Shown: one piece after another, positions 22,784-59,708 of the stretch
How the letters are laid out: every line of letters starts with the position of its first letter
Position numbering within the stretch: the stretch's first letter is position 1
NCBI GenBank assembly: GCA_949282555.1
Contig: CASDPK010000008.1
Location: forward strand, 3,108-67,107
DNA from: an uncultured Lentisphaeraceae bacterium
GTDB lineage: Bacteria > Verrucomicrobiota > Kiritimatiellia > RFP12 > DVOR01
Direction of reading: 5' to 3'
Length of the DNA: 64,000 bases
Translations under genes and position numbers: made by a program
The notes under the pieces: model-generated
What the model saw: the letters and a program-made list of their open reading frames with translations, nothing else
The model's database searches: none
What the model was told of the DNA's origin: nothing

Positions 22784-23326
22784 TTAGGGATTGAGGATTC
22801 GGTGACGCCCTACCGCAGGTACGAGAATGGTATACTCGTCGTCGGCGTCCTGAGCGTCGGTGACCGCCTGTTTCACGCGGATGCGGTAAGGATTGCCCCA
22901 GGGGTCATAAAGTGTGTTGCCCCGCAAGGTGGGATGGTTGGCATTGAAATAGACGGTCTTGGCATCGTTTGCCGAGGGATCGGTAAGTTTGTTGACGATT
23001 GTTCCCTTGGCTTCGTTGATGCCTTCGGAAAGGCCCAAGTCTCCCATGGGATCCCCACCGTCGTCACCATCGCCATCGGAAGTGTCGAGCATTGTCAGGC
23101 AATAGAGACGGATGGCGTCGCCCAGCGCGCGTCCCTCAGCCGTGGCCTTGACGGTACGGGCGTTTTCTCTGGCGGCGTAGGTCGAGAAAGCAAAACTTGC
23201 AATGAGGATGCCGATGATAGCGATCACCACCAACAACTCAATCAACGTGAACCCGGCACGGGCCGCATGTGCGATCTCATCGTACGGACGTGCAGGGAAT
23301 GGATTGCCTAAATGGTTCAGGTTCAT
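22784..23326 (-). CDS. Type II secretion/type IV pilus-like pseudopilin, GspG-like (carries DPWGNPY)
   Basis: Leader ...ARAG|FTLIELLVVIAIIGIL (prepilin cleavage/methylation motif). C-terminal DPWGNPYRIR matches the GspG hallmark. Start 23326 has a GAGGA RBS. Confidence 0.7.
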   Translation of the reverse strand: MNLNHLGNPFPARPYDEIAHAARAGFTLIELLVVIAIIGILIASFAFSTYAARENARTVKATAEGRALGDAIRLYCLTMLDTSDGDGDDGGDPMGDLGLSEGINEAKGTIVNKLTDPSANDAKTVYFNANHPTLRGNTLYDPWGNPYRIRVKQAVTDAQDADDEYTILVPAVGRHRILNP

Positions 23327-23376
23327 GTCGCGGTCCTCAATCCAAAGGGGTTCGTGGGCATACGCTTGTGCCGTTG

Positions 23377-24174
23377 TCACTTGTCCTCACCTTCCGGCCA
23401 AGGGCGGATATCGTCCTCAGTGCCCCACTCACCATCGGGGCCGCAGGAGGCAACGGCGATCTCGTAATCGTTGACGGTGGGGGGCGTTTGAGGTCTGATT
23501 TTGATTTTGACGGCTGGGAGCGGATAGCTGGAGTTGAAGGCGGCGTCGTAATTGCTGCCGGAGACCGTCTCAAAGGTAATGCTACCGCCCTTGAGTGCGT
23601 ATGTCGTGGAGGTGCTCTTGCCGCCGTCGTAAGGTTCTTCCTTGCGTGTCACGGAGGAGCCACCCGAATACGTCACGCGGATCAGCTCACGGAGCGCTCC
23701 GTTGCCGGAGCCTTTGAGCTGTTCGTCCGGGTCCGTCGGTGGGCGAAGAATCCAAAAATCCAGCCCGCCGGACAGTTTCCCCTCCGCCGCGAGATCACTT
23801 TCGCTTGTGAGCGGGGTTTCCCCATCCATCATCACGAAGTTGTAAGGGTCCACCATCATGGCGAGATCGCGGCCAAGCGCGCCGACAACGGCGCGGGTGA
23901 CGGATTGCGCGTCGGCGCGCTTCAAGCCGAGCGACCATGCCAGCCCTGTCTGCTGGAAGATCCCCGCGACGATGAGCACAATGATGGAGAGGATGGTCAT
24001 CGCCACCAACACTTCAATGAGCGAGAACCCTTGGCGGAGCCTTTGGAGTCCGCGGTGTACGCGATTGAGCGGTGCACCGCATCCACGCTCGCGATACGGA
24101 GCCTCTCGCCCCGAGATACGGACTCCATCGGCCGAGGCCTCAGGCTGTCCTGTGCAAAGATGCGTCAAATCCAT
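23377..24174 (-). CDS. Prepilin-type N-terminal methylation domain protein (minor pseudopilin, GspJ-like position)
   Basis: RLRQG|FSLIEVLVAMTILSIIV motif. The annotated start gives an unusually long leader, so the true start may be a downstream non-ATG codon. Confidence 0.5.
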   Translation of the reverse strand: MDLTHLCTGQPEASADGVRISGREAPYRERGCGAPLNRVHRGLQRLRQGFSLIEVLVAMTILSIIVLIVAGIFQQTGLAWSLGLKRADAQSVTRAVVGALGRDLAMMVDPYNFVMMDGETPLTSESDLAAEGKLSGGLDFWILRPPTDPDEQLKGSGNGALRELIRVTYSGGSSVTRKEEPYDGGKSTSTTYALKGGSITFETVSGSNYDAAFNSSYPLPAVKIKIRPQTPPTVNDYEIAVASCGPDGEWGTEDDIRPWPEGEDK

Positions 24175-24184
24175 GGTCGTGCTC

Positions 24185-24718
24185 CTATTTGTTCGTGGAG
24201 GTGACGAACACGTTTACCACGTAGACCGGGGCGGTTTTCAGCGGGCGTGTGTTCTTGCTGCAATCCTCTCCGGTGGCTTGGACGCAGACTTGGACGGCTT
24301 CGGTCTTCCGGTCGCCGTTGTTCACGGTTTCGATGTTCCCGGAATTGGTGACATCGGGTTCTTTCCACCATGCACGGTACCACACGCCGGAATTTTCGGG
24401 ATCTTCGTGCGCTTCCACCCTGTCGTCGTCTTCCACGGGGTCTTCCACGCGAAAGCCGAAATCGCCCTCCAACTCATCCAGCAACGTGTCGGCATCCACC
24501 ACGCCGGGCTTTTCGGCGACGGTCCGGGCGGCCCCCATGAAGCGTTCACAGAAGGCTGCCACGCGCATTTCGTTGCGGGCGGCCAAGCTTTCACGCAATC
24601 CGAGCGGGAAAAGGCCGAGCAATGCCAACGCCCCGCCGGCCAAAACGAAGATGGCCATGTTGACCTCGATCAGGGAGAAGCCTGCACGCAGGGCCGTATG
24701 AAAGGAAATTCGTCGCAT
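24185..24718 (-). CDS. Prepilin-type N-terminal methylation domain protein (minor pseudopilin, GspI-like position)
   Basis: ALRAG|FSLIEVNMAIFVLAGGALALLGL. Confidence 0.5.
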   Translation of the reverse strand: MRRISFHTALRAGFSLIEVNMAIFVLAGGALALLGLFPLGLRESLAARNEMRVAAFCERFMGAARTVAEKPGVVDADTLLDELEGDFGFRVEDPVEDDDRVEAHEDPENSGVWYRAWWKEPDVTNSGNIETVNNGDRKTEAVQVCVQATGEDCSKNTRPLKTAPVYVVNVFVTSTNK

Positions 24719-24729
24719 GGGGGGCCTCC

Positions 24730-25641
24730 TTATTTGACGCTGACGGTACCCTGACCATCAACACTGACGGTGAAGGTGGCGTTCTTGGCATTCTTCGAGA
24801 TCGAGTGCGCCGCAGTGACCGAAGAGGCGGAGCCGGATTGGAGGCTCCCCTCGGGGCCAAAGATGAAGACCGCCCGATCGCCGCCCTCAAACGCATAAGC
24901 GTCGGGCAGAGAGAAGGTCGCCGTCACACGCACGGCCATCGGGAAGGCGCGGTCACTGGGAGCCGAGCCTTCCAGCGTCGCGACCCAAAAACCGGGGTTA
25001 CTCCGGGTGGCGCCTTCCTCGCCAATCTCAAGGTCTGCGTCTCCAGCGAGCATTTCCAACGACTTCTTCTGCCCTGCGACCCAGTAATCATAACTGAGAC
25101 GATTCTTGCGGTTGTTGTTGATTTGCTCGTTCAGATCGTCATTATCCTTTGTGGGATCATCCGCGATTTTGTCAATCCGCATAAAGGTGGACGCATCGGG
25201 GTCGAACAAGTTGATGGCTCGGGCGTTTTTGCGCAAGGCCGCGCCCAAGACTTCCCGCTGAAGGCCAAACGGAGCGAGCAAGGTTTTTCCCTCGTGCCAA
25301 ACGTTCCCGATGGATTGGAAGAGCGCGTAACGTCCCTGCTTTACTTTCTGCTTTTTACTGCCGACCACGATCTCGGTGTCGCTGTTCCAACAAACCACCA
25401 CGTGCGTTTTGCCGAGGATACAGGCCTGCTGTCGCGCCAAGAGGAGCGTGTCTCGGAGTTGGTTGCGGCTTTTGGTGACCCCTTCTTGGCGCATGGCACC
25501 GAAAAAGGAGGTGGCGGCCATGGTGATGAGCATCGCGGCGATGCCGATGACCACCATCAGTTCGATCAGTGTGAAACCCGAACGTCGGGAAAGTGTTCCT
25601 TCCCGTGCCGACGCGTCTGTCCCGAAAAACGTCATACCCAT
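24730..25641 (-). CDS. Prepilin-type N-terminal methylation domain protein (GspH-like pseudopilin)
   Basis: SRRSG|FTLIELMVVIGIAAMLITMA. Its size and position match GspH-type proteins. Confidence 0.55.
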   Translation of the reverse strand: MGMTFFGTDASAREGTLSRRSGFTLIELMVVIGIAAMLITMAATSFFGAMRQEGVTKSRNQLRDTLLLARQQACILGKTHVVVCWNSDTEIVVGSKKQKVKQGRYALFQSIGNVWHEGKTLLAPFGLQREVLGAALRKNARAINLFDPDASTFMRIDKIADDPTKDNDDLNEQINNNRKNRLSYDYWVAGQKKSLEMLAGDADLEIGEEGATRSNPGFWVATLEGSAPSDRAFPMAVRVTATFSLPDAYAFEGGDRAVFIFGPEGSLQSGSASSVTAAHSISKNAKNATFTVSVDGQGTVSVK

Positions 25642-25709
25642 TTGGAAATCCCTTTCGTCGTGCGAGGTTCACAGGGGGTCGCAGATCCGGCGCCCAATGT
25701 TCTGGCCGA

Positions 25710-26363
25710 TCAGTTCAATTGGATCACCTCTGCGAAGCTTCCTTCGTGAGGGGAGGTGACGGAGACATGATCCAAATCAAAATCATAGGTGATTTTGAGC
25801 GGGGCAAACGCTCTCGCTTGGCTGAGACGTTTGTACTTGCTGACGCCGGTCTTGTTCATTGTGACCAAGAACCCGATCATGTCACTGGCCGAAACGCCGC
25901 CGCCTGTGAGCGCATCGTCAAGTTTGGTGACGCGGCGTCCACCTTTGCAGACGTAGAACATTGAGGAATCCGTGATATAAGCGCGCTTTGCGTCATCACG
26001 CTTGCCGTTGGCATCGCGCCCAAGAAGCAACATCACGATTTCGGCATTGCCCTCCTTGGGGCGATTGTTGTTGACGGAGCCGAAGGTCGCGGAGCTAACG
26101 TCGGAGGAGTACGCCTCGGGGAGCGGATAGGCGCCATGCTCGTTCTTGTAGGCCATGATGGCACTTTCGACGATTTCCACGCAAGCGTTGCGCTTTGTCT
26201 TCTCGGCGCCTTTGATTACACGGGTCACGCCAATGACGCCCAATCCGACCAACGTGGCGAGGATGACCACCACCACCATCAGTTCAATCAATGTGAAGCC
26301 TGCACGGGAGCGTTGGGCGGCCTTGAGGGAGCGTAAGGAAGCAAGCGGAGTCGCGATATTCAT
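25710..26363 (-). CDS. Prepilin-type pseudopilin (GspG-like paralog)
   Basis: SRAG|FTLIELMVVVVILATLVGLGVIGV...AIMAYKNEHGAYP, a GspG-like N-terminal helix. Confidence 0.6.
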   Translation of the reverse strand: MNIATPLASLRSLKAAQRSRAGFTLIELMVVVVILATLVGLGVIGVTRVIKGAEKTKRNACVEIVESAIMAYKNEHGAYPLPEAYSSDVSSATFGSVNNNRPKEGNAEIVMLLLGRDANGKRDDAKRAYITDSSMFYVCKGGRRVTKLDDALTGGGVSASDMIGFLVTMNKTGVSKYKRLSQARAFAPLKITYDFDLDHVSVTSPHEGSFAEVIQLN

Positions 26364-26447
26364 GGATGAAATCCTTTTTGAGCGTTGAGGCTGGGAACGT
26401 GAGAAGAGAGGCGCGGCAATGGCAACCGCGCCATGTCTTGCACGCGT

Positions 26448-27089
26448 TTACCAACTTTGGGCGTAGACTTCGCCGTTCTTTTCACCGTCTTCCGCCCAGC
26501 ACCAAACCGCGGCGTCTCCGCGGACTTTGCCGCCGGGCACCGACAATTTGGCGGGAAGGCCATCGGAAGAATCGACGATGCCATCCTCGTTGACATCAAG
26601 GACAAATTGGTAAAGGTGATCGGTCACATCCGAACCGCTCCGGCCTTGCTTAAAGCGCTTGGCGCCGATGGGATCAAGCATGCCGTACTTCAATTCGGCC
26701 TCGTTTTCCCTGTTACGGCGGAGGCCGGCCTGCGTGGTGGAATCCGTCGCGTCGGTGTCGATATAGAGCACGTCCAAAAGGCCGGCCTTGCCCAACACCA
26801 AGCACATATCCGTGTCCATGGACTTCACGCCGGAGGAGGCGATTTTGTATTCTTCCGGCCAAAAGCCGACATCGCGGTGATAGTTGGTCCACGCCACGGC
26901 AATCTGCTTGCAGTCGTCGGCGGCATTTTTTCGACGCGCCGATTCCATGAACGCCGTGTAACCGCCGGCGGTGATGCCCCCCAAAATGCCGAGGATCACG
27001 ATGACGACGAGCAACTCAATGAGCGTGAAACCCGCACGGCGAGCGCCAAGGCCCTGAGTGCGGCGTCCGAAAGCATGCGTTCCGTTCAT
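26448..27089 (-). CDS. Prepilin-type pseudopilin (GspG-like paralog)
   Basis: ARRAG|FTLIELLVVIVILGILGGITAGGYTAF. Confidence 0.6.
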   Translation of the reverse strand: MNGTHAFGRRTQGLGARRAGFTLIELLVVIVILGILGGITAGGYTAFMESARRKNAADDCKQIAVAWTNYHRDVGFWPEEYKIASSGVKSMDTDMCLVLGKAGLLDVLYIDTDATDSTTQAGLRRNRENEAELKYGMLDPIGAKRFKQGRSGSDVTDHLYQFVLDVNEDGIVDSSDGLPAKLSVPGGKVRGDAAVWCWAEDGEKNGEVYAQSW

Positions 27090-27126
27090 AAGAATCTCCC
27101 TCTTCCTCTAGGCATGATGGCCGTAA

Positions 27127-27945
27127 TCAGTCCTCGTCGTCATCGGCGATGCCGCTGGCCGTGATGTCGTCGGCCGTCCCGAAGGCTCCATCCGGGCCGG
27201 CGGAGATGATTTCCCCGGCGCCGCCATCGTTCCGATACTTGAGGGCGTGCTCCCAGGCATCGCTCTTGGCACCTGCGGTATAACGTTGGGCGCCGCATTC
27301 GACACAGACGGTTTCTCCACTTTTCACCAAGCCATCTTTTTGGAGACGTCGCCAAGTACGGTAGATCTGCTGAAGATTGTTGTCTGCGGCTTCATTGGCG
27401 GCAGTGGCGCCCAAGGCGTCGCTCGCGTTTTTGAGCCCTCGGATTTCGGTGGCCCACGGCGTGTCTGCCGCGGGATTCCGATACATTTCTTTGTAGTGGC
27501 CCAGAAGCTCATCGGAAACGGCTTCTGAAATCACGGTTGCACGTGGCACAAAGTGTGAACACAGGCCGAACTGAATTTCGTCGGCATTGTTGCTGTTGGT
27601 GACGGCTTTGAATCCGCAGTATTTGCATCCGGGCGAGCCCGACTCGGAAACAAAGCGGAAGTCCAAAGGGGCGTACCCATTGCTATCCGTATTGGAAACG
27701 ACGGGATAATCGCCGTAGATGGCCTTGTATTCCTCGAGCAAGGTGGCGATGGCGTGGATTTGCGCGGTGGTTTCCGCGATCGCGGCTTTGTCACGCGCGG
27801 CACGGATCATTCGGAAGAGTCCCGCCGCCAAAATGCCGAGGATCACGATGACGACCAACAATTCAATGAGCGTAAACCCCGCGCGTTGCCGAATGCGCGT
27901 TTGCGCCGGCATGACGGCGCGGTTGCCAAACGATAAGTGGTTCAT
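27127..27945 (-). CDS. Prepilin-type pseudopilin (GspG-like paralog) with acidic C-terminal tail
   Basis: RQRAG|FTLIELLVVIVILGILAAGLF...EEYKAIYGDYP. Start 27945 has a GGAGGG RBS. The tail ends ...ASGIADDDED. Confidence 0.6.
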   Translation of the reverse strand: MNHLSFGNRAVMPAQTRIRQRAGFTLIELLVVIVILGILAAGLFRMIRAARDKAAIAETTAQIHAIATLLEEYKAIYGDYPVVSNTDSNGYAPLDFRFVSESGSPGCKYCGFKAVTNSNNADEIQFGLCSHFVPRATVISEAVSDELLGHYKEMYRNPAADTPWATEIRGLKNASDALGATAANEAADNNLQQIYRTWRRLQKDGLVKSGETVCVECGAQRYTAGAKSDAWEHALKYRNDGGAGEIISAGPDGAFGTADDITASGIADDDED

Positions 27946-28029
27946 GGAAAATCCCTCCGACAAAACGGAATGAAGCCTGATGGTGGGCGGGGCCGCACCA
28001 TGCCGTGCGAACCTCGCCCGCCGGGGCTG

Positions 28030-35676: not shown

Positions 35677-35721
35677 CCTTGTCATGCGGTTCCGCCGTTT
35701 TTTTGAGCCTTCCCGCCGTGC

Positions 35722-35762
35722 GTTGGGAAGGCTCGTTTCATTTTTGCCCCATCTTTTCTTGG
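35722..35762 (+). terminator. Rho-independent terminator after folB
   Basis: GCCTTCCC-gccgtgcgtt-GGGAAGGC, followed by TCGTTTCATTTTT. Confidence 0.5.
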
Positions 35763-36095
35763 AAACGATCGCTGGACGTCTTCGAGTTCATGCTTGACAA
35801 ACCCGGTGTCCCAGTGTACCCTATGGAGCACATAGCTTGAGTTGAGGCGGAGTCCCAGTTGGGTCATCCCGCCACGCCTCAGGCGCATAACGATGCGTTA
35901 ACGCATACATTCGTTCGTAGGGAACTACCACTTCTGTTGCAAGGACGAAGGTATTGCGGAGGCGCGTTGGGGTTATTCCCTGGCGTGTTTCTCCCGTACT
36001 GTTTTCTTGCAAGGCTGTGGTAGGCCTCCTACGGAAACGTGAACGGACGGAGGCACGCCTTAATTGTGTCTCCGGTTGAAGAGGAGACACTTGCA

Positions 36096-36824
36096 ATGAC
36101 ATCTTATCCTTCTGATGAACAGGCCCTTCGAGCGGGGATCACCAATCTCATGCAACGTTGGGAAGCGGCTCTGCCGGATGATTTGCGCGAACGTTTTGTT
36201 CCGGACGGTTTCTATCCTAACTACACGCATCAGCGTAACCGCCTGTTGTTTATTGGCCGTGAAGCGTACGGAATGACGGGGTGCGATTATGTTGACGTGT
36301 TCGACCCTATTTACCGTCGTGGATATGGGCTCGGTCGTTTTCATCGCGACATTCTTCACATTGCGTGGGGGCTTCTGAATCGAATTCCACGTTGGCAGGA
36401 CATCCCGGATGCCACGGAAATGGCTGGCCAATTTGGTAAGACGGCAAAGGAGGGTGGCCTTTCGTTCGCTTTCATGAACGCCAACAAGTGCAGCAATGAG
36501 AATGGCGACACGCCTACGAATTGGGCGGAAATGGATCGCTTCCTTGGTGTTTCGATGCCTTTTATCCGCGAGGAAATCGCACTGTTGCGCCCCGATGTCG
36601 TCATTTCGATGAACCTCAACGACAACAAAACCTATTACGAAGGTTTGGGACAACAGTATCTCTTCCACACGGGGAAGGATGGGGATGTCGCCCTTCATCG
36701 GCTCCCCGATGGAACGCTCTTTCTTGATGTTTGGCATTTCTCCGCCTGGGGCAAGGATAGTGGCACGCAACGTTACGAACCAATCGTTGAGGCGCTTCAA
36801 CACCCCGAGATCCGTTGGTGGTGA
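36096..36824 (+). CDS. Hypothetical protein
   Basis: Lower-GC ORF with no signal peptide. No confident family. There is a weak resemblance to uracil-DNA-glycosylase-fold motif spacing (FIGREAYG ... HFSAWG), unverified. Confidence 0.45.
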   Translation: MTSYPSDEQALRAGITNLMQRWEAALPDDLRERFVPDGFYPNYTHQRNRLLFIGREAYGMTGCDYVDVFDPIYRRGYGLGRFHRDILHIAWGLLNRIPRWQDIPDATEMAGQFGKTAKEGGLSFAFMNANKCSNENGDTPTNWAEMDRFLGVSMPFIREEIALLRPDVVISMNLNDNKTYYEGLGQQYLFHTGKDGDVALHRLPDGTLFLDVWHFSAWGKDSGTQRYEPIVEALQHPEIRWW

Positions 36825-36916
36825 GTTTCTGCCAAACGTACCTTCGCGTCAAGAAGAGATCTTCGGAAAGTGGAGGTACGGTTTCTAACCCTTTGAAAAC
36901 AGGAGGAGTGTCCGTG

Positions 36917-37645
36917 ATGAATCGTAAAATTGTTCTTACGGTAAGTGCCGCAATGTTGATGGGAACCTTACGTGCGGAATCTCCGCTCAATATTATCCAA
37001 GTGAACTTGGGGCAGGTGCCAACGCTTATCAAGGAGGAGCCGAAGCAAGTGCGTGAGCCGGAGGCGGATGCCAGGAGCGTCAGGCAGGAGTCGGAGAAGC
37101 CGCAGCCCAAGATTGCGGAGACCGACTTTGAAGGGCGGCTTAAGGTAATTGAAGAAAAGTTGAAATCATCTTTCAAAGAGTTGTTGGACGCTCGGAATAA
37201 AGAGATAGAGGCCTACAAAGCAAACTTCTTTGCCCATCTTGAGACCAAGCTCAAGGAGGCTCAAACGTGTGGCGATTTGGATGCCTATGAGACGTGGAAC
37301 GACCGAAAGGAACGTTTCCAACGTCTTCAGAGCTTGAACGGTTGGACGGACGTACTTTATCGCTGTGGGAACAAAAAGTGGTGGACTATTGTTAACGGTA
37401 TGCGTTTCGATCCCAACGATATTCAAGGTACGGAAGTGCCTAATTTTGAGGAACTCTACGGTGATTCCATTAAGAAGGTGTATCAAGAGGCGGATAAGGC
37501 CGCAGAAGAAGTCCAGCGCGATGCTCTAAGACTGGGTAAAGTGGAGGTGTCCAAAAATGTTCGGGAGTGGCGTAACAAAACATTGTCCAACAATAAAGAA
37601 CGCAGCATGGATTTTCTCATTCGTGGTATTCGTGGCAGAGAGTAA
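36917..37645 (+). CDS. Hypothetical secreted coiled-coil protein
   Basis: AGGAGG RBS. Signal peptide MNRKIVLTVSAAMLMGTLRA. The mature part is Lys/Glu-rich. Confidence 0.5.
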   Translation: MNRKIVLTVSAAMLMGTLRAESPLNIIQVNLGQVPTLIKEEPKQVREPEADARSVRQESEKPQPKIAETDFEGRLKVIEEKLKSSFKELLDARNKEIEAYKANFFAHLETKLKEAQTCGDLDAYETWNDRKERFQRLQSLNGWTDVLYRCGNKKWWTIVNGMRFDPNDIQGTEVPNFEELYGDSIKKVYQEADKAAEEVQRDALRLGKVEVSKNVREWRNKTLSNNKERSMDFLIRGIRGRE

Positions 37646-37650
37646 CTGAG

Positions 37651-40149
37651 ATGAAGACACGTGCATTATTTTGTTGGGTCGGCGCTCTAGGATGCCTCGC
37701 TGTGGCGGGATGCATCCGTGGGCCTTTCCGTTCGGCCATCGTTGGCGACAAAGAGTCCGCCACGGTTCAGTGGGTAAAGGCAAAGCCCGTGTTGGCACCG
37801 CTTTCGGCCCCCGTCGGCATCTTGACGGATGTCGTTTTGGTTCCGATGGATACTGCAACTTTATTGAGCATCAATTGTGCATGGCGGCCATTTCTTGATA
37901 ATGCGACTCTGAGCGGATCCGAGGATCATTACTTCCCTGCAGCCATACCTAACATGTTTGTGCTTCCGTTGTTACCGCACCTGTTCACCATTGGCAGTAC
38001 GTGTGATTACTATGTGGATCTCTTTGGCAATCGAACGGAGTGGCATCTCAAACAGTTACTCTCTGAGAAACGTTATGATGACGCACTAAAAATCGTGACG
38101 GAAGGAAGTGGTATACCAAAGCCGACGGCAGTGCCAAAACGTGGCCTTTATTGGGCGAACGAAAGGAATGAATGGGCTCCCATCATACAGAATACGCAGA
38201 ATGCTTGGCGGGAGCAGTGGACGAAACAGATTTCCAATCTTGTGAAGGATGAGGCCGAACGATTGGGACGCATTTTGCAGACCGCCGATTCCCCTGAGGA
38301 ATGGGACAAGGCCAACGCAGAACTTGCGCGTTTGGGGGCGAACGTCACAGGGGATAAGGCTTCATGGCGAGCACTTGCCGTTTGGCGCGAGGCCTTGAGA
38401 AAAGGGGATTATGAAACGGCGTGGGAGTTGCTCAAAGAGTATCCCTCCGTTTGCTTCGATGGGCTTCCCATGTATTATGCCGAATGTGTCAGTAGAGGAT
38501 TCCCGAAGGCGTTTCGAGCCAAATTGTATGATGTAGGCATGCTTCATCCCTTCCGAGTTGGGGATTGCGCGTTGTTGTTGTGGCAACAGGATACAGATAT
38601 TCTGAAACACCCCCGGTTCCGTCTTCCTTTAGAAGCGGCACTGCCGGCCTTGAATGGTTCGTTGAAGGATCTTCTAGCCTTTTTGGACGTGACGCAGGGC
38701 GTGACCTACGCATTTGCACCTGTTTCCTCGGGAGATTATGCCGCAGTCGATGAACTTTTACAGGCAAAGCACCCCAAGCGCTTGATGCAAGCCATTAAGC
38801 AGAAACTTTTGGCGGGCGACGCTGCGGTGCTTGTGGCACTTGTAGAAATGGGAGAGATGGAAGAAGCTCAGCGGTTATGGGTAGAAGCCAATGATGAAGC
38901 CCAAAATGAAATATTGGCCTTGGCTCTTGACGAAGCGAACCCTAAAGGTGAACAGGTCATCACGGCACTTTCTTGTCCAACACGGGGAGTGTGGTGGCCG
39001 GCTTTCCAGCGCTTGTGTCGGCAAAAGAATAATGCCATGTGCCAACAACGTTTGGTGGCATTGCAAAACGCCGGCTGGATTTCGGAAGAAAAGATATGGT
39101 CCACACGCAAAAGACTCTTCACCGAAGCGGCTAGGGCATTGTTGGCGCGCGCCACGGCAGTTACGATTTCTCTGGAAATCCCGCATGGGGAAGAAGAGGC
39201 CGAGTTACTTACAGACTTCCCGGAGTTCAAGGAATCTTTTGCCAATCTGAAACAGATACGCATGAAGGAACTTTTCACAAACCGTCCGTTTAAGGAGATT
39301 CTCGAAGTCGCCCGAACGGGGAATGGCGCTACGGCCATTGAGATGTTGAAGTGCAATCCCTCCTTAAGGGTTGTCTCTCCCAATGATGTGGTGCTCGGAA
39401 TTGAAACGCAAAATGATGCCTTCGCTAAGGCCCTTATTCAGCGTTGCCCCAACTTGAACGGGGAGCCCGACGCTGTAACACCCCTTATGGCGGCTGTATG
39501 GCACAACCACGCAGAAATCGTCAATCTGTTACTCTCGCGCAAGGTCAATGTGAATCGCAACGTTTCCAAAGAGCAATTCATTGCGTGGGCTTCGACAAAT
39601 GATGCAATGGAACGCTATCTTGAGGAGCGCTTTGACGCACGGAACGACGTGGACGCAATGTATTTGGCGTTGGAGATTCTCCCCTCCCCGGCAAGCGTTC
39701 GCTCCCTGTTGGGTGCAGGAGCCTATTATGACAGTACGCCACCCATCAATACCTGTCTTGCACTCGCTATACGCAAGAATAACATGAGCGATGAGAGGTG
39801 GAATGCGCAATGTGAACAACGGGTGGAATGCGCATTGGCTATTCTGAATGCTGGCGCAGAAGCGAATGTTTTCGTTTGTGAAGAGGAAGAAGTCCATACC
39901 ATTGTACTTTACGCGATCCTTTATACCGATTCTCAGGAACTCGTTCGGGCGTTGGTGCGCAAAGGTGCCCCTGTCTCCCTAGAGGCCGCCAATGCCGCCA
40001 TTCAGAAGGACTGGGTTAAGTTGGGCGAGTGGCTTCACTCAAAGGTCGACGACGATTGCAGGACGGAGAATGCCATTCTTGCGGAGAACCTCATGAAATA
40101 CGCAGACGCCGTCCCTTGGCTCCGTGCGCTTCTCCGGAGCCTCCAGTAA
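37651..40149 (+). CDS. Large lipoprotein with C-terminal ankyrin repeats
   Basis: Lipobox LAVAGC. C-terminal TPLMAAVWHNHAEIVNLLLSRKVNVN-type ankyrin repeats. Confidence 0.55.
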   Translation: MKTRALFCWVGALGCLAVAGCIRGPFRSAIVGDKESATVQWVKAKPVLAPLSAPVGILTDVVLVPMDTATLLSINCAWRPFLDNATLSGSEDHYFPAAIPNMFVLPLLPHLFTIGSTCDYYVDLFGNRTEWHLKQLLSEKRYDDALKIVTEGSGIPKPTAVPKRGLYWANERNEWAPIIQNTQNAWREQWTKQISNLVKDEAERLGRILQTADSPEEWDKANAELARLGANVTGDKASWRALAVWREALRKGDYETAWELLKEYPSVCFDGLPMYYAECVSRGFPKAFRAKLYDVGMLHPFRVGDCALLLWQQDTDILKHPRFRLPLEAALPALNGSLKDLLAFLDVTQGVTYAFAPVSSGDYAAVDELLQAKHPKRLMQAIKQKLLAGDAAVLVALVEMGEMEEAQRLWVEANDEAQNEILALALDEANPKGEQVITALSCPTRGVWWPAFQRLCRQKNNAMCQQRLVALQNAGWISEEKIWSTRKRLFTEAARALLARATAVTISLEIPHGEEEAELLTDFPEFKESFANLKQIRMKELFTNRPFKEILEVARTGNGATAIEMLKCNPSLRVVSPNDVVLGIETQNDAFAKALIQRCPNLNGEPDAVTPLMAAVWHNHAEIVNLLLSRKVNVNRNVSKEQFIAWASTNDAMERYLEERFDARNDVDAMYLALEILPSPASVRSLLGAGAYYDSTPPINTCLALAIRKNNMSDERWNAQCEQRVECALAILNAGAEANVFVCEEEEVHTIVLYAILYTDSQELVRALVRKGAPVSLEAANAAIQKDWVKLGEWLHSKVDDDCRTENAILAENLMKYADAVPWLRALLRSLQ

Positions 40150-40308
40150 CTGGGAAATCTCCGAGGCGTGCAGTATGAACATCGTAAGGCACGCCTTGGT
40201 GGACAACATGGAGAAGGGCCAGTCCTATCTCGTCAAAGGTTTGGCGCGACATTCGGCGAAGACACATCAAGTTGAGGCAGTGTAAAAGACAAACAGAAGG
40301 AAGTTGTT

Positions 40309-42057
40309 ATGGAACAAACCCGTGCAGAACGAAATCGTACACTCGCGTTGTTGTTTTTGGTGCTTGCGACGGTTGTTGCGGGCGTGGCCTCTTTTGTTTG
40401 GCAGAAAGAACCGTTCTCTCAACAAAAGGAAAGGCTTACTTTGGATGAACATGAGGGAAGACTGGAATGGTATCGCAAAGCCGCTGAACAGGGGGATGCG
40501 GCGGCGCAATTTAACCTTGGCGTACTGTATGCCAATGGGGAAGGGGTGCCACAATCGTATGAAGAGGCTGCGAAGTGGTGGCGTAAGGCGGCGGAACAGG
40601 GGAATGCGGAGGCACAATTTAACCTTGGCTTACTGTATGCCAATGGGGATGGTGTGCCGCAGTCTTATGAAGAGGCCGTCAAGTGGTTTCGCAAAGCGGC
40701 CGAACAGGGGCTTGCGGCCGCACAATATACCCTTGGGTTGAGATATCTCAATGGTCAGGGAGTCACTCTGTCTCATGAGGAGGCGGTCAAATGGTTTCGC
40801 AAGTCCGCGGAACAGGGATTTGCGGCCGCACAACATAACCTCGGTGTGATGTATCTCAATGGTCTGGGCGTTTCGCAGTCGTATGAGGAAGCCATCAAGT
40901 GGTTTCGTAAATCTGCGGAACAGGGACTTGCGGCCGCACAATATAACCTTGGCGTGATGTATTTCGAAGGTCAGGGTGTTTCACAGTCGTACAAGGAGGC
41001 GGTTGAGTGGGTTCGCAAAGCTGCGGAACAGGGCCTTGCTGCCGCACAAAATAACCTCGGCCTGATGTATCTCAATGGTCAAGGTGTCCCACAGTCTGAC
41101 GTGGATGCCGTCAGGTGGTTTCGCAAATCTGCCGAACAGGGGATAGCGGAAGCTCAATGCGCGCTTGGTGGGATGTATGCCACGGGCAAGGGGGTGTCAC
41201 AATCCTATGAGAGGGCTGGTAAATGGTTTCGTAAGGCCGCCGAACAGGGAGATGCCGTCGCTCAATATTATCTTGCTTCGTTGTATGCAGAGGGGCAGGG
41301 TGTCGAACAGTCTTATGAAGAAGCAAACAAATGGTATCGCAAGGCCGCGGAACAAGGAGATCCCGACGCTCAATTCGAGCTCGGTGTGATGTATATGGAG
41401 GGAAAATTGGGGCCTCAGAACGCAACAACGGCGATAAGATGGTTGGAGAAGGCTGCAGAACAGGGACATTCTGAGGCACAACAAGCGCTTGATTCACTGA
41501 AGCAGAACAAGCAATCATCTCAGAGACCTGACTTCGGGGCGCCATCTGCGGATGAGCACTCAATGGAGCAAAATAAATCATCTTTTCAAGCTCCCATGAA
41601 GGGATTTTCGTTTTGTGGTATCGCACTGGGAAGTGTGAAAGAGGCCACCGCCAAGAATGATGAGGGTTATCCGCTTTACACTGGGAAATTGGGACAACCG
41701 TTTAGAGGCATTGATGAGGTGAGGTGTTTTCTGACGCCTTCGAAACGGCAGGTCTTTGGAATTCGTTTGGCAAAAGCGTTTTCTTCCTATTCGGAGATGT
41801 GCAAGGAGCAGGAAACAATCAAGCGTCTGCTGGAGATCAAGTATGGAAAGACGCCGGATAGAGTGGAGAAAAATGATGCCCAAAACGACGACTATTATTG
41901 GTTTTTGGAAGACGGGACGATTGTGGTGAACTTGGATGCCCCAACAGACGAAGTGATGGTATTGGATGTAATCTCCCTCCCATTGCAACAGAAAGCCGAA
42001 GAAGAGCTTCGTCAGAAGACGCTTGAAGAGAACGCCGCCGATTTGAAGGCCCTCTGA
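40309..42057 (+). CDS. Sel1-like (TPR-family) repeat protein with C-terminal non-repeat domain
   Basis: About 10 tandem 36-aa units AAEQG-AAQ-NLG-MY-NG-GV-QSYEEA-KWFRK-. Single N-terminal TM or signal segment. Confidence 0.8.
   Translation: MEQTRAERNRTLALLFLVLATVVAGVASFVWQKEPFSQQKERLTLDEHEGRLEWYRKAAEQGDAAAQFNLGVLYANGEGVPQSYEEAAKWWRKAAEQGNAEAQFNLGLLYANGDGVPQSYEEAVKWFRKAAEQGLAAAQYTLGLRYLNGQGVTLSHEEAVKWFRKSAEQGFAAAQHNLGVMYLNGLGVSQSYEEAIKWFRKSAEQGLAAAQYNLGVMYFEGQGVSQSYKEAVEWVRKAAEQGLAAAQNNLGLMYLNGQGVPQSDVDAVRWFRKSAEQGIAEAQCALGGMYATGKGVSQSYERAGKWFRKAAEQGDAVAQYYLASLYAEGQGVEQSYEEANKWYRKAAEQGDPDAQFELGVMYMEGKLGPQNATTAIRWLEKAAEQGHSEAQQALDSLKQNKQSSQRPDFGAPSADEHSMEQNKSSFQAPMKGFSFCGIALGSVKEATAKNDEGYPLYTGKLGQPFRGIDEVRCFLTPSKRQVFGIRLAKAFSSYSEMCKEQETIKRLLEIKYGKTPDRVEKNDAQNDDYYWFLEDGTIVVNLDAPTDEVMVLDVISLPLQQKAEEELRQKTLEENAADLKAL
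40480..41480 (+). repeat. Tandem array of 108-bp coding repeats (Sel1 units) inside the Sel1 gene
   Basis: Near-identical nucleotide units recur (cgcaaagc/tgcggaacagggg...gcacaatataacc...). Confidence 0.7.
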
Positions 42058-42101
42058 TGCGCCCAGTCATTTTTCACTCAAGCAGCAAAGGAGATAGTAT
42101 C

Positions 42102-42689
42102 ATGCACAGCACAAAGACGAGTCATGTTTCGGAAAAGGATGTGTTGGTCGCACTGTCGGCGGCACAATCCACGCGTCCGAAGGACTCCGCAAACAATACC
42201 CGGAACGAGGAGAAACAGACGACTCCTGAGGGTGGATGTCCACAGAGGACGAGTAGCCATCAGCGGCCAAGGCAATGTTTTGCGCCATTCTTTTCTGCGT
42301 GGAAGCATTGCACAACGGTAGGGCGCGCCTCGCGTTCAGAGTTTTGGTTCGGTTTTTTGCAACTGTCGTTGACGTACTTGCTCTTGGAGCAACTCATATT
42401 ACGTGTGAATCCAGAGATATGCGAGTCTTGGTGGTGGACTTTGGTGTTCGGTGGTCTCTATATTGGGCTCGATTTCATGTGGACGACGCGCCGACTTCAC
42501 GATATTGGGATGTCCGGGCTGCTTCCGTTAGTAATTCTGTTGGGAACGTTCGCAGTAGGGGTAGGGGCAGTGGGCTATTTCTTCCTTAAATTAGTCATTT
42601 TCCCTCTTATGGTTATTGTAATTGTTCTTTGTCTGTGGCCGAGTCAGCCGAGAGAGAACAAGTACGGCCCCGTGCCCTACGTTGAGTGA
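42102..42689 (+). CDS. DUF805 (YhaH-like) inner-membrane protein with hydrophilic N-terminal extension
   Basis: RSEFWFGFLQ..., RRLHDIGMSG, and C-terminal TM helices. AAAGGAG RBS before ATG 42102. The alternative ATG 42057 overlaps the Sel1 stop. Confidence 0.55.
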   Translation: MHSTKTSHVSEKDVLVALSAAQSTRPKDSANNTRNEEKQTTPEGGCPQRTSSHQRPRQCFAPFFSAWKHCTTVGRASRSEFWFGFLQLSLTYLLLEQLILRVNPEICESWWWTLVFGGLYIGLDFMWTTRRLHDIGMSGLLPLVILLGTFAVGVGAVGYFFLKLVIFPLMVIVIVLCLWPSQPRENKYGPVPYVE

Positions 42690-43699
42690 TTGGGCTGTCG
42701 GGTGTGGCGTGGATTTGCCGACACTGTGGGCACGAGGAGCCGTATCAAAATCCGGCGGCGGAGGTGGTGTGCCCACAGTGTGGCGTCTTGGGATTCTCGG
42801 ATGACGTGACCTCTTCCCCCGTGCCGCCGACGACGCCTTCGGCGGGCACGGAAACGGAACCTTCCGAAGATGTTGTTCCCTGTTTGGGGCCTGAGGCGGT
42901 TGTCGAGGGCGGACGGGGTGCATTGTCTTCGCAGAGGGAGGTCGTGGGGAACTTTGCGCAGGAGTTGGTTGCCGATGCGGTAGCCAACCCCGACACACCC
43001 GAAATGGCGGAGGCGGCGACGGAGGAGACGGAGCCGTGGGTCGCTCTCGTGGCCTGTGGACTTTGCGTACTGGTGTTTGCCTACCAGCGATTCATTGGCC
43101 CCACGTTGCTTGAGGTGGATACGGCGTGGGTGGATGAGACCTTCGCTTTTTGGTGGTATGGAGGAAAGGCCGAACAGTGGTGGCAGTGGGTGACGGGAGC
43201 CTTTCTCCACGGGGACGGCTTGCATTTGCTGGGAAATATGCTGGCGAGTTGTGGACTCATGTCCGAGGCGGAAAATCGGATCGGTCACTTCTCCATGGTT
43301 GGGCTAATTCTCTTGGGGGCGATTGCCGGAAGCTTTGGTGAGTTGCTCTTTCAGTTTTTCTCGGCGGGAACGATGCCGGGTGGCCTGTATTGTGTTGGGT
43401 TTAGCGGGGTGGTGTGCGCGTTTGGCGGGGTGTTGCTCTTTAGCAGATCTTTTTGGGTTTTGCCGTTTCTTCTGCCATCGCTCATTCCAACGGAGGCGAC
43501 CGGGGATGAAGCGTCTCTCATTGCCTATGGTGGGCATCTCGGCGGCTTCTTGTTGGGTGCCTTTTTTGGGTTCATTTCCATCTTTGCGGGGAAACGCACG
43601 TTTTTGGTGATTATCGCTATTGTGATATCGCTCCTCTTCGTGTGTGCACTCGTCCTTTTTCTTTTAGTGGCCTTAGGAGACACAGAGGGGCTTTCATAG
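42686..43699 (+). CDS. Rhomboid-family intramembrane serine protease with N-terminal zinc ribbon
   Basis: CRHCG...CPQCG, then rhomboid catalytic GFSGVVCAFGG (GxSG) and YGGHLGGFLLG (His). GTG start overlaps the DUF805 stop. Confidence 0.65.
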   Translation: MIGLSGVAWICRHCGHEEPYQNPAAEVVCPQCGVLGFSDDVTSSPVPPTTPSAGTETEPSEDVVPCLGPEAVVEGGRGALSSQREVVGNFAQELVADAVANPDTPEMAEAATEETEPWVALVACGLCVLVFAYQRFIGPTLLEVDTAWVDETFAFWWYGGKAEQWWQWVTGAFLHGDGLHLLGNMLASCGLMSEAENRIGHFSMVGLILLGAIAGSFGELLFQFFSAGTMPGGLYCVGFSGVVCAFGGVLLFSRSFWVLPFLLPSLIPTEATGDEASLIAYGGHLGGFLLGAFFGFISIFAGKRTFLVIIAIVISLLFVCALVLFLLVALGDTEGLS

Positions 43700-43743
43700 T
43701 TCTTCAGATACTTCCATCATCTGTCAGAATAGGAAGGAACTTA

Positions 43744-44232
43744 ATGGTTTTTTTGGATGAGGAAATCTTGGATTATCAGCAACAGTTGGTCGTTCAGGGG
43801 GAGTTTCGGAAACTGTCGCGACGGTATCACACGACGTTTGGCGTTTATCCCGAGCGCGACGATGTATTGCGTCGCACACGCAGATACCTTTTTTGGGCTC
43901 AAGTTAAGCGATGGTGTTGTCTTCTTTTCCTGACGCCAATACTGCTCTTTTGTGCATCGGGTGTTCTATTGTTTTTTAGTCCTGATCTGGTCGAAAAGGT
44001 GTTAGGCGTTATTTTTGGCGTTGTCGGGGTGAAGGTTTTTCGTCCTTGGCGAAAGGCTTTTCTCAATACACCAAGGAACTGGTTCCGCCCAAAGGCAGAA
44101 TCCGATTTTTGGTCGAAGAGATCAGAACAACAAAAGAATGGGACTCGGAAGGATGTTTGGTCGTTCGATGAGAAGGGGTTTCTGCTTCATCGCCTTGCTG
44201 AGATTTACGAAATCACGATAGAAGAGGTTTAA
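43744..44232 (+). CDS. Hypothetical membrane protein
   Basis: GGAAGGAAC RBS. One or two TM helices. No family recognised. Confidence 0.4.
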   Translation: MVFLDEEILDYQQQLVVQGEFRKLSRRYHTTFGVYPERDDVLRRTRRYLFWAQVKRWCCLLFLTPILLFCASGVLLFFSPDLVEKVLGVIFGVVGVKVFRPWRKAFLNTPRNWFRPKAESDFWSKRSEQQKNGTRKDVWSFDEKGFLLHRLAEIYEITIEEV

Positions 44233-44274
44233 ACGTCCCTTGCGGGGGGTGTTTTGGGAGGTTCTGTATCGGAG

Positions 44275-44334
44275 AGGGAGATGTAGTGCATCCCAAGAGG
44301 AGATGCGGAGCATCCTAGGTTGGGGTGCTCCGCG
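44275..44334. repeat. Reverse-oriented copy of the ~38-bp island-boundary repeat (GGAGATGTAGTGCATCCCAAGAGGAGATGCGGAGCA) plus an adjacent inverted GTGCTCCGC arm
   Basis: The reverse complement matches 57977-58014 with 4 mismatches over about 38 bp. Confidence 0.55.
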
Positions 44335-44383
44335 TTTCGTTGTGAGGGTCGCGCTTGGGGATGGGCTGTGCTAGAATGAGGGC

Positions 44384-57976: not shown

Positions 57977-58014
57977 TGCTCCGTATCTCCCCATGGGATG
58001 CACTGCATCTCCCT
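57977..58014. repeat. Forward copy of the ~38-bp island-boundary repeat (TGCTCCGTATCTCCCCATGGGATGCACTGCATCTCCCT)
   Basis: Shares the exact 13-mer GCTCCGTATCTCC with 2260-2272. Shares about 34 of 38 bp with the reverse complement of 44277-44312. Confidence 0.55.
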
Positions 58015-58236
58015 ATGAGACATGCCGTGCCACGATTGGAACCCCTCTGCAGGCTTGGTGGAGCGTCTCGGTCTTATAAGGTGAACGCCTTGTCACCTTG
58101 CCTGCTTCACATACGTTGAGAAAGAACTTGCAGTCGCTATCGGTTGTGCGATAAAGTTACTGGTATGTCTTTTATGTTTAGGACTGTGAAGGGAACTTTT
58201 GCGATTGGTTGTTACATGAGAGAGGAATGCTAAGAG

Positions 58237-58845
58237 ATGAAAGCAATTTGGTGCCTTCCATTGTGTCTCCTTTTGGGGTGTACGAATTATTCCGGGTTCT
58301 TGTCGTCTCGCTGGAATCCGCCCATCGTTTCGCCGCCGCCGGTTCCGGGGTCTATGGTTTCAATTGGTTTTATCGGTCTTGGATTCCGCGAACACCTTGG
58401 TTATGCATCAACGGGGGAGCGCCCTTTCATCCAAGGTCGGCTTCTGCAAATAGGAAAACCTCGCGATTCGCAGGGAGCCTATTATCCCCATTCCCCATGC
58501 CGCCCAATTCGGGTGGAGATTAGTATTTGCCATCGTGAAGGGGATGACCGCTTTAAGTACGACTACCTACTGTTTGTGCACCGGTTGCCGGCGGAGCTCG
58601 TCATCAAATCGGTGAACCGGGTTACAGGCGAAGAGGAATTGGCTTGGCCTGCCAACATCATGATGTCAGGGTCGCACTATTCATGGATTACGCCCTTCCC
58701 CGAAAACACCACCATCACGCTGACGGAGTTGTTTTGGGTTTCCGGCGCAAGCGATTATCGGAAGACGCACGATCTTTATATTGTTTATTGGAATGAGGAG
58801 GTTCGCGTAGAGACGCCGCTTGAGGTCGAGGAAATACCGTGGTGA
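58237..58845 (+). CDS. Hypothetical lipoprotein
   Basis: Lipobox LLLGC. Low-GC island. Confidence 0.5.
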   Translation: MKAIWCLPLCLLLGCTNYSGFLSSRWNPPIVSPPPVPGSMVSIGFIGLGFREHLGYASTGERPFIQGRLLQIGKPRDSQGAYYPHSPCRPIRVEISICHREGDDRFKYDYLLFVHRLPAELVIKSVNRVTGEEELAWPANIMMSGSHYSWITPFPENTTITLTELFWVSGASDYRKTHDLYIVYWNEEVRVETPLEVEEIPW

Positions 58846-59036
58846 TGGTGTGGTGAAAGACCAATGCCCTCCACTGTTGCTTCAATTTCGAGAGCGCCTT
58901 GCCCCGTTTTCACGGCGGTTTCCGTCAATTGTTCTTTAGCAGCCCAATGGGACCACGGTTTGTATGGGTATAATGTCTTTGAATGCGGTGGTGTTATGAG
59001 GAGTGCATTGGGTCACTTTGTCAAAGGAGAGAGGTG

Positions 59037-59708
59037 ATGTTCCGTAACTTACCTACACATCTTGTGGTCTTGGCACTCCTGTTGATTTCAGGATGCTTAT
59101 CAGCACCGACAAATACACGGACTTGGAAACTTCGCCTAACGGATAGGACATTGGAGTTTGAAGAACCCGTTACGTTTTCTGTCCCAGTTTCATCAATTGG
59201 GGAAAAGCGTCTTGCAACGCATGTGGAGGGGATTGTCAAAGACAATTTGAGGGATGCACCATTCTTGGTAGAAGTCGAGTTGGATGACGTGGATAATTTG
59301 TCTTCGTGCTCATATTGGAAAATGATGCATTCCGTATTGGACTATTTGTGCATCGGAGGGAGAGTGAAGGTGCACATGAAGACAGGGGGAGCACCCATTG
59401 AATATATGTATGCCACGGAATATCCTTCAGGCTCGCCCGAGGAAATAATCAATGGCAACTTTCCTTACAGAGTTCTCGGCGAAAACAATTACCTTTTGAT
59501 GGCTGAAACCTACTTCGTAATCAACGGACAACGGTATGAGCATGGAGAGACGCTAGATAAAGAGTTGCAACGTTGTCTCCAAAAGGCGCCGTTGATTGTT
59601 TTCCTTACGCCTCGAGTAAAGATAAAAGAGGTGATTGTCTTTTTGCAGTCATTAAACATGACGTCCTTTCCTCTCGGTTTTTTGCCATTGCCGTCTTGGG
59701 AACGTTGA
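59037..59708 (+). CDS. Hypothetical lipoprotein
   Basis: AAGGAGAGAGG RBS. Lipobox LLISGC. Confidence 0.5.
   Translation: MFRNLPTHLVVLALLLISGCLSAPTNTRTWKLRLTDRTLEFEEPVTFSVPVSSIGEKRLATHVEGIVKDNLRDAPFLVEVELDDVDNLSSCSYWKMMHSVLDYLCIGGRVKVHMKTGGAPIEYMYATEYPSGSPEEIINGNFPYRVLGENNYLLMAETYFVINGQRYEHGETLDKELQRCLQKAPLIVFLTPRVKIKEVIVFLQSLNMTSFPLGFLPLPSWER

Follow-up and report, generated by a model that had tools for sequence, protein, structure and literature searches.

How does a low-GC operon of orphan envelope proteins come to stand between the conserved core genes of an uncultured gut bacterium, and by what means does it change? This question is raised by a stretch of 64,000 nucleotides (nt), hereafter the window, of contig CASDPK010000008.1 (assembly GCA_949282555.1, positions 3,108 to 67,107) from an uncultured Lentisphaeraceae bacterium of the Kiritimatiellia, in which a block at about 35.7-44.3 kb follows the gene folB. 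Our initial annotation of this DNA had read the block as a laterally acquired island of eukaryote-like repeat proteins and membrane proteases. The results presented here favour a narrower interpretation: the block is probably a flexible genomic islet, an operon-sized accessory cassette with its own promoter and leader RNA that has been reshaped by recombination between related lineages and has no dedicated mobility system. The islet consists of a stable 5′ part and a replacement-type 3′ part, and its host is a gut member of the Kiritimatiellae resembling 'Candidatus Spyradenecus'. The prepilin peptidase encoded nearby has its best matches, at 57-69% identity, in uncultured gut Kiritimatiellae, several of which are named 'Candidatus Spyradenecus', whereas an exact look-up of the FolB protein retrieved no entry.

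A low-GC block at a synteny breakpoint

The drop in GC content that had first drawn attention to the block was borne out in profiles of 1 kb and of 300 nt. In 1-kb windows, positions 36001-44000 have a GC content of 0.503-0.551, compared with 0.599-0.619 in the left flank (33-36 kb) and 0.599-0.685 in the right flank (44-49 kb), and in 300-nt windows the low values extend from about 35.6-35.7 kb to about 44.25 kb, with sharp borders. Codon usage agrees with this profile, as the GC content of third codon positions (GC3) is 0.48-0.65 in the seven island genes (mean 0.557) and 0.759 +/- 0.044 in the 30 core genes of the window (minimum 0.653; Mann-Whitney p = 3.9e-7).

The folB terminator and the copy of a repeat at the 3′ edge, both recognized in the initial annotation, are present (Table 1). 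The six genes that it named also exist, although a seventh gene, p162, and a leader of 266 nt had been overlooked, and the overlap of stop and start codons ascribed to every gene is found at only two of the six junctions (1 and 4 nt), the other four having gaps of 92, 5, 159 and 44 nt. The block is one transcription unit, made of promoter, leader, swappable first gene and envelope module, but it is not the single piece that had been supposed, as three layers can be told apart: the leader and the interchangeable gene behind it, the envelope module, which is conserved, and a 3′ end that is hypervariable.

Table 1. Coordinates of the features in and around the low-GC block (positions in the window).
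Feature	Position	Strand	Description
folB intrinsic terminator	35704..35745	+	12-pair hairpin (35704-35735), T-run; ends the conserved cinA-ilvB-ilvN-aroE-pepD-folB block
Cassette promoter	35794..35822	+	TTGACA, 17 nt, TACCCT; sigma70-type; read from sequence
Structured 5′ leader RNA	35829..36095	+	266 nt, non-coding, up to ATG at 36096; from folding and covariation
Leader elements	35893-35906; 35908-36041; 36049-36073; 36081-36086		Small hairpin; rod hairpin of about 134 nt; hairpin; Shine-Dalgarno sequence GAGGAG
p242	36096..36824	+	242 aa, divergent, predicted uracil-DNA-glycosylase-superfamily fold; swappable first gene
cc242	36917..37645	+	242 aa, secreted, helical coiled-coil-like, charged; N-terminal signal-like sequence MNRKIVLTVSAAMLMGTLRA; module gene 1
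ank832	37651..40149	+	832-aa all-helical lipoprotein, lipobox ..VAGC, Cys21; module gene 2
Intergenic stretch	40150..40308	+	About 160 nt, hairpin AGGCGTGC..GCACGCCT; AGGCACGCCTT also present in the leader; accompanies the Sel1 gene
sel582	40309..42057	+	582 aa, membrane-anchored, nine Sel1 repeats and a C-terminal domain; Pfam Sel1 355 bits
DUF805 inner-membrane protein	42057..42689	+	Pfam DUF805 56 bits
Zinc-ribbon rhomboid intramembrane serine protease	42686..43699	+	PF01694 53.8 bits (cut-off 22.6); N-terminal CxxC..CxxC
p162	43744..44232	+	Small orphan with two transmembrane segments (hydrophobic at aa 56-93); no family match
REP-like composite repeat	44252..44335	+	Units GAGATRCGGAGC / GGAGATGYAGTGCATCC, ends in hairpin 44305-44333

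The gene block cinA-ilvB-ilvN-aroE-pepD-folB is collinear in all 20 related species recovered, whereas the DNA 3′ of folB differs in each of them: yraN, DUF2238 and the island genes were all absent from the 10 kb after folB in these species. In L003, genes found at 61.1-64 kb of the window follow 2.1 kb after folB, and in L007 topA and its neighbours follow after 3.8 kb, in an orientation opposite to that of the window. Since the upstream block is kept and the downstream content is different in the 20 related species, the island lies exactly at a synteny breakpoint. The comparison with close relatives that the initial annotation had proposed therefore finds the block missing from the folB site in 20 other species, and its 3′ half different among three strains.

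Elsewhere the same module is found in two other genomic contexts besides folB/yraN, namely between Dus and CdsA/Dxr in L023 and, in L027, beside rplQ-rpoA, where the ribosomal cluster ends. In each of the three contexts it is 5-12 GC points below its flanks (cassette 0.54-0.59 and flanks 0.60-0.74 in L023; cassette 0.50-0.57 and flanks 0.61-0.68 in L027). Neither an integrase, a recombinase, a transposase nor a phage gene was found among the seven island proteins with Pfam, NCBIfam and PHROGs, a tRNA scan of the 64-kb window retrieved no tRNA, and no pair of direct repeats flanks the block. BLAST against 50,697 phage records gave no match of the island, and BLAST against plasmids retrieved generic Sel1 repeats only (matches of about 65%), so that an interpretation as a classic mobile island did not hold.

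Replacement of the 3′ half between strains

Strain L022 belongs to the same species and is 97-99.8% identical to the window in the core. At 35.8-40.5 kb the two strains are 93-99.6% identical, whereas at 40.5-44.25 kb their comparison is a mosaic of 52-93% identity or unalignable sequence. Within the DUF805 gene the nucleotide identity is 93% up to about 42352 and the sequences then diverge, showing that the N-terminal part is common and the membrane part replaced. L022 also carries a gene for a zinc-ribbon TM2 protein resembling that of L023, and no such gene is present in the window. From 44252 rightwards, strain L001 matches the window at 98.7% identity, and the DNA of L001 that adjoins this point on the left contains another Sel1 gene. 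The exchange has its breakpoints within the Sel1 array and the DUF805 gene and at the repetitive extragenic palindrome (REP)-like repeat. At the same locus and between conserved flanks (97-99.8%), the window, L022 and L001 have non-orthologous gene sets at 40.5-44.25 kb; the 3′ half of the block, about 3.7 kb, is exchanged between strains by non-orthologous replacement up to the repeat.

The REP-like repeat is the right border of the variable DNA, because the homology with L001 begins at its first position. Further copies were found at 2257-2291 and, inverted, at 57977-58013, and all three clear intergenic copies mark places where core DNA gives way to a low-GC patch. Those at 44.3 and 58.0 kb have opposite orientations and enclose a segment of 13.7 kb. 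In two other species, genes of one end of this segment (topA side, L007) or from just past the second low-GC patch (ppiC, L003) are neighbours of folB; an inversion or translocation at the REP-like repeats is suggested. A role of the motif as a family-wide recombination site was considered and rejected, as it is absent from the loci of all other species; two of its seven loose matches fall in coding DNA, and it is retained only as a species-specific element.

Replacement-type flexible islands, as Rodriguez-Valera and Lopez-Perez are said to have described them for Alteromonas and other pangenomes, reportedly hold strain-specific sets of non-orthologous genes, typically for the envelope or surface, at one and the same locus with conserved flanks. 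The islet of the window resembles them, as it lies between conserved core genes, has a low GC content and no integrase, encodes envelope proteins, and has had its 3′ half replaced by analogous non-orthologous genes with sharp breakpoints. In contrast, only about 3.7 kb of it is hypervariable, the 5′ half being a conserved cassette also found at other loci in other lineages, and a structured leader RNA and an exchangeable gene in first position belong to it as well.

A structured leader RNA in front of the cassette

The cassette promoter is kept in L022, L023, L024, L027 and L016, with TATCCT or TATACT as the -10 box in the relatives, and the homology between lineages starts at the -35 box. The last 200 nt or so of the leader that follows (35893-36090) are 77-89% identical across lineages, compared with about 69% for coding DNA. 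Its minimum free energy is -114.4 kcal/mol, compared with -88.6 +/- 4.5 kcal/mol for shuffled sequences (z = -5.7). RNAalifold, applied to the leaders of four lineages, gave 81 pairs, 14 of which have compensatory double changes. In the alignment, 95.5% of the cells are paired as opposed to 40-51% with the partners slid, the slid controls have only one or two pairs with double changes, and none of 500 shuffles reaches the observed values. The structure holds when the divergent leader of L016 is added, with 15 compensatory pairs out of 73. The covariation from five lineages is convincing for the rod hairpin and weaker for the outer helices, and the rod appears strand-specific because it is rich in G-U pairs, which become mismatches on the other strand.

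The full-length folds of four of the five lineages predict a paired Shine-Dalgarno (SD) sequence, with a probability of about 0.8-1.0, and that of L027 predicts a partly paired one; when the 3′ hairpin forms alone as a competing hairpin, the SD sequence is predicted to be free. From these folds, the leader may be a translational switch that would hold the ribosome-binding site of its first gene in a helix and release it upon some signal. Translational riboswitches and SD-sequestering 5′ leaders form a general class, and long-hairpin leaders processed by RNase III, such as that of pnp, are also known. Like members of this class, the leader lies on the coding strand between a conserved promoter and a start codon, has conserved covarying helices and has an SD sequence that is predicted to be paired in the full-length fold and releasable by a competing hairpin. 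However, it is dominated by a single rod hairpin of about 56 bp rather than by a compact ligand pocket, it belongs to no Rfam family, and the genes downstream vary by lineage.

Indeed, a search of Rfam 15 (4227 families) gave no match of the leader at the gathering score and nothing relevant at E<=10. With an invariant 19-mer of the leader, a metagenome scan found again the L024 contig only, with no new leader copy, and a search of IMG/VR gave no match. The leader is present in at least five lineages, upstream of differing first genes. The 11-mer AGGCACGCCTT occurs in its 3′ hairpin (36051-36061) and again at 40187-40197, in the hairpin that precedes the Sel1 gene; a common protein- or RNA-binding motif and a chance occurrence are both conceivable (2 of 100 shuffles reach the total count).

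Swappable first genes and the p242 family

The window, strain L022 and L027 have p242 in the slot behind the leader, and L024 has a gene for a 353-aa Mrr_cat nuclease there (899-1960). The open reading frame (ORF) of 90 aa behind the leader in L023 (9021-9293) and L025 (230-502) is an internally deleted remnant of the L024 Mrr_cat gene with both ends kept; therefore, the first-slot gene decays while the leader and the module persist. In L016, from a genome classified by GTDB as 'Ca. Spyradenecus sp.' (MAHA01_bin.015), this promoter and leader stand before an operon of other genes (1093-5131), just upstream of cinA, which encodes a P-loop nucleoside triphosphatase (NTPase), a PrsW intramembrane protease, an unknown protein and a DUF805 protein. 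The match of the NTPase to DO-GTPase2 is weak, at 20.8 bits, below the Pfam cut-off of 27. Homologues of this NTPase, of the unknown protein and of the DUF805 protein were also observed in L007, where a Sel1 gene stands before them. An obligate pairing of p242 with the leader was rejected, since distant p242 homologues lack the leader and the leader also precedes other genes.

The p242 protein has no match in Pfam, NCBIfam, PHROGs or PADLOC, the PADLOC database used being that of 2023, which predates Brig1. We found 19 homologues of it, on account of which a minus-strand ORF proposed by a crude gene caller at 36060-36803 was discarded in favour of the plus-strand gene. Its AlphaFold2 model has a predicted local distance difference test (pLDDT) score of 92.6, and the Foldseek matches of this model in the Protein Data Bank (PDB) are nearly all members of the uracil-DNA-glycosylase (UDG) superfamily, namely TDG, family-4 UDG, MUG, UdgX and SMUG1 (E down to 1.7e-4; template modelling score 0.44-0.61). 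Two motifs are invariant in the alignment, FIGRE..G (FIGRE(A)xG) and HFS; by their comparable positions in the alignment, they may correspond to UDG motifs A (GEAPG/GINPG) and B (HPS). A search of the PDB with the alignment profile was not significant, its best match being to family-4 UDG with E = 1.2.

Relatives of p242 were examined in three places, where they neighbour AbiEii and HipA, then ParA, RPA, a methyltransferase and HTH_17 (an element of the methylase/excisionase type), and finally an integrase, HerA and a DEAD/MZB helicase; by their gene content, these three neighbourhoods appear to be of the mobile or defence type. The divergent UDG-fold proteins Brig1 and Brig2 are described as stand-alone antiphage genes in AT-rich acquired DNA (PMC11078745; bioRxiv 10.1101/2025.10.29.685425). 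Given the predicted fold, the mobile and defence neighbours of its relatives and this precedent, p242 is a candidate antiphage glycosylase, which we do not assign to the Brig families. It shares with them a predicted UDG-superfamily fold, at 10-17% identity to known members, a location in AT-rich accessory DNA, and relatives near mobile-element and defence genes. In contrast, it has no detectable sequence relation to characterised glycosylases, it opens a longer operon and a leader RNA precedes it.

The envelope module and the Sel1 insertion

The module has a conserved order, in which the secreted coiled-coil protein is followed by the large lipoprotein and the DUF805 protein; in L023-L025 these are followed by a zinc-ribbon TM2 protein, a zinc-ribbon rhomboid and the zinc-ribbon protein p185. 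Across lineages the amino acid identity is 48-56% for the coiled-coil protein, 59-66% for the lipoprotein and about 33% for the DUF805 protein. Homologues of cc242 were found in L023, L024, L025, L027 and L028, always with the large lipoprotein directly downstream. L027 keeps the leader, p242, the coiled-coil protein and the lipoprotein, and has neither DUF805 nor protease.

The initial annotation of ank832 as an ankyrin-repeat lipoprotein stands as regards the lipoprotein and a match above threshold, but the ankyrin signal is limited to some 50 of the 832 residues (aa 587-637; Ank_2 36.7 bits, cut-off 27.3; Ank 32.1 bits, cut-off 21.1), the remainder being helical and without family match. 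For ank832, HMMER retrieved from 1.84 billion representatives 29 matches at E<=1e-3, four of them at E<=1e-30, and the six close homologues all come from ENA or Logan metagenome assemblies, with none from NCBI genomes. The relatives are few and the loci retrieved for the close ones are bacterial gene neighbourhoods, so that nothing suggests a recent import from eukaryotes, and Sel1 genes are frequent in the lineage (L001, L005, L007, L008); the description of the block as eukaryote-like cargo of horizontal transfer is therefore not upheld. The AlphaFold2 model of ank832 is of low confidence (pLDDT 52). Six proteins of 730-940 aa (P0031, P0032, P0035 and P0037-P0039) share only its first 150-200 residues; by sequence, the N-terminus looks like an anchoring domain reused with different C-terminal parts.

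Between the lipoprotein and the DUF805 gene, the Sel1 gene and the stretch upstream of it are an insertion found only in the species of the window: both are missing in L023-L025, where DUF805 directly follows the lipoprotein. In strain L022 the intergenic stretch differs by one base, and the Sel1 protein, of 500 aa, has a different set of repeats and 65% identity to sel582. Tandem units of 108 nt (repeat family D1) extend over 40466-41413 of sel582. Sel1-repeat proteins of bacteria include Hcp of Helicobacter and LpnE and EnhC of Legionella. With its nine canonical repeats sel582 resembles these proteins, but it differs from them in its N-terminal membrane anchor, in a distinct C-terminal domain of about 150 aa, in being one of many paralogues of the lineage, and in a repeat number that varies between strains.

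The rhomboid protease shows the motifs HxxxN, GFSG and a later histidine (GGH), has only three close homologues, and shares about 27% identity with its positional counterpart in L023. It shares the domain and the HxxxN, GxSG and histidine motifs with GlpG and rhombosortase, but compared with the NCBIfam equivalogs it scores 36.1 against 250 bits (GlpG) and 28.8 against 84 bits (rhombosortase), and it differs further by its N-terminal zinc ribbon and by a cassette without a GlyGly-CTERM partner. The last gene product, p162, is unrelated to p185 of L023. Searches of PADLOC, PHROGs and NCBIfam with the island proteins and with the module proteins of L023 and L024 gave nothing meaningful, the matches of the island proteins in PADLOC 2.0 being only spurious low-score ones to repeats or zinc ribbons. 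In the literature, nothing relevant was found on a module of DUF805, rhomboid, zinc-ribbon and TM2 proteins or on 'Spyradenecus'.

Other low-GC patches and neighbouring genes

Two further patches of the window, at 2.4-4.2 kb and 58.1-60.9 kb, have a low GC content similar to that of the island. The second low-GC islet (58100-60950, GC 0.47-0.51) lies between topA, on the minus strand, and a SurA/PpiC-like gene, and contains four orphan ORFs, which have no Pfam match and show signals of lipoproteins or membrane proteins. Four other strains (L037-L040) have this islet in collinear form at an identity of 99.5-99.7%, so that, unlike the 3′ half of the island, it is fixed in the species. The third patch (2384-4196) holds three small orphan ORFs with a GC3 of 0.51-0.56, and is followed at 4784-7591 by a gene for a 935-aa GH101 endo-alpha-N-acetylgalactosaminidase (GC3 0.60), an enzyme acting on mucin O-glycans that fits a gut lifestyle. 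On the minus strand at 22784-27963, beside GspF and upstream of a prepilin peptidase, six tandem paralogues share the DNA that encodes their N-terminus, a segment of the prepilin type for methylation and with hydrophobic residues (repeat family D2).

Weighing the alternatives

The initial claim that the block was laterally acquired is supported by an accessory insertion at a breakpoint, an atypical composition, the absence from 20 species, homologues at two other loci and a strain-variable 3′ half, but not by the 5′ half, which is stable within the species. Several points weigh against our interpretation as a flexible islet. The 5′ half is as conserved between the two strains as the core, and any acquisition of it must therefore predate their split; no strain with an empty folB-yraN site was seen, the insertion being deduced from other species; and no donor with a matching GC content was found. 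Synteny 3′ of folB is poor across the family, so the differing loci could result from rearrangement rather than transfer, and the second islet, low in GC yet fixed, shows that low GC alone is no evidence of ongoing turnover. In addition, the regulatory role of the leader is read from folding predictions and from covariation among five lineages, and what the envelope module does is judged from the domains and localisation signals of its proteins.

Some of these points would be equally expected if the block were an old, vertically inherited operon specific to the lineage, whose low GC content is due to AT-biased mutation and weak selection on codons in orphan genes of low expression, whose loci differ by ordinary rearrangement, and whose strain differences stem from local decay and repeat reshuffling. 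This explanation, the main rival, which we regard as rather unlikely on the whole, applies notably to the 5′ half: besides the core-like identity between strains, the poor synteny in all 20 species and the fixation of the other low-GC orphan patches, it accounts for the lack of mobility genes, tRNA and direct repeats, for the leader of L016, which places this RNA in the family through a 'Ca. Spyradenecus' genome, and for the lipoprotein identities between lineages, which are within the range of core proteins (pepD 58-69%). Nevertheless, it does not agree with the patchy spread of the cassette, as no homologue of the lipoprotein comes from NCBI-sourced genomes despite 20 related species there, nor with the lower GC in three independent contexts, with p242 relatives that are mobile-element cargo elsewhere, or with a 3′ half in which the TM2 gene is present or absent, the membrane domain of DUF805 and the rhomboid are swapped, and the Sel1 gene of L001 is a different one. 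The same absence of integrase, transposase, phage gene, tRNA and flanking direct repeats, together with the negative phage and IMG/VR searches, leaves a classical integrase-mediated island or a prophage remnant, for which the atypical GC and the sharp borders might have spoken, with a negligible probability; we consider this idea largely refuted.

As regards function, the whole cassette could be a single anti-phage system, in which the leader would gate the first-slot product, a DNA-targeting or NTPase sensor or effector, while a membrane effector or exclusion arm would be formed by the membrane proteins with zinc ribbons, the intramembrane protease and the lipoprotein. UDG-fold proteins, Mrr-type nucleases and DO-GTPase2-like NTPases are classes known from defence or conflict systems (PMC11078745; 10.1101/2025.10.29.685425; PMC7159879). 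The neighbours of p242 relatives (AbiEii, HipA, HerA, integrase) and the AT-rich, strain-variable and rare character of the cassette are in line with such a system, as is L016, which repeats the theme of leader, enzyme, intramembrane protease (PrsW) and DUF805. We nonetheless judge it improbable, given that no island protein has a significant match in PADLOC or PHROGs, that the DO-GTPase2 match is below its cut-off, and that the parts are separable, as seen in L027 and in P0010, which has p242 alone. A related speculation, to which we likewise give little credence, is that the leader represents a new class of cis-regulatory RNA gating the translation of interchangeable DNA- or NTP-dependent conflict genes (for the UDG-fold protein, the Mrr-type nuclease and the DO-GTPase-like NTPase) and forming, with DUF805 and rhomboid or PrsW proteins, leader-controlled membrane-linked defence modules in gut Kiritimatiellae that resemble no known defence system. 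Even less probable are host-interaction effectors of eukaryotic type, acquired from eukaryotes or pathogens, whose ankyrin and Sel1 repeats would mimic host proteins. The Ank_2 and Sel1 matches, the origin of the organism from animal guts (according to the titles of related records) and Sel1-like genes on plasmids of Legionella, Vibrio and Acinetobacter would be compatible with them, but the ankyrin signal is short, the relatives of the lipoprotein are confined to a tiny metagenomic set, the matches on plasmids are limited to the generic Sel1 repeat, the lineage is rich in Sel1 genes, and the cassette has no linkage to a secretion system.

A flexible islet thus remains our preferred, though not certain, interpretation. 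Under it, the cassette would spread and diversify by homologous or illegitimate recombination that uses shared gene ends and the repeat, without integrase or transposase. Its products, except for the cytoplasmic DNA enzyme, would act at the cell envelope. The replacement of envelope genes at the strain level suggests that they take part in an interaction under diversifying selection, the partner being more likely phage than host.

Significance

The locus overturns no concept, and both the RNA motif and the p242 family are directly testable. The leader is a candidate for a new structured RNA, with covariation and an occurrence in at least five lineages before differing first genes, and p242 represents a rare family of predicted UDG fold that would include a candidate antiphage glycosylase. 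For the gut Kiritimatiellae, which are uncultured and whose accessory genome is essentially undescribed, the locus provides a worked example of an islet that turns over between strains without a mobility gene, with its breakpoints mapped to a repeat array, the interior of a gene and a REP-like element.

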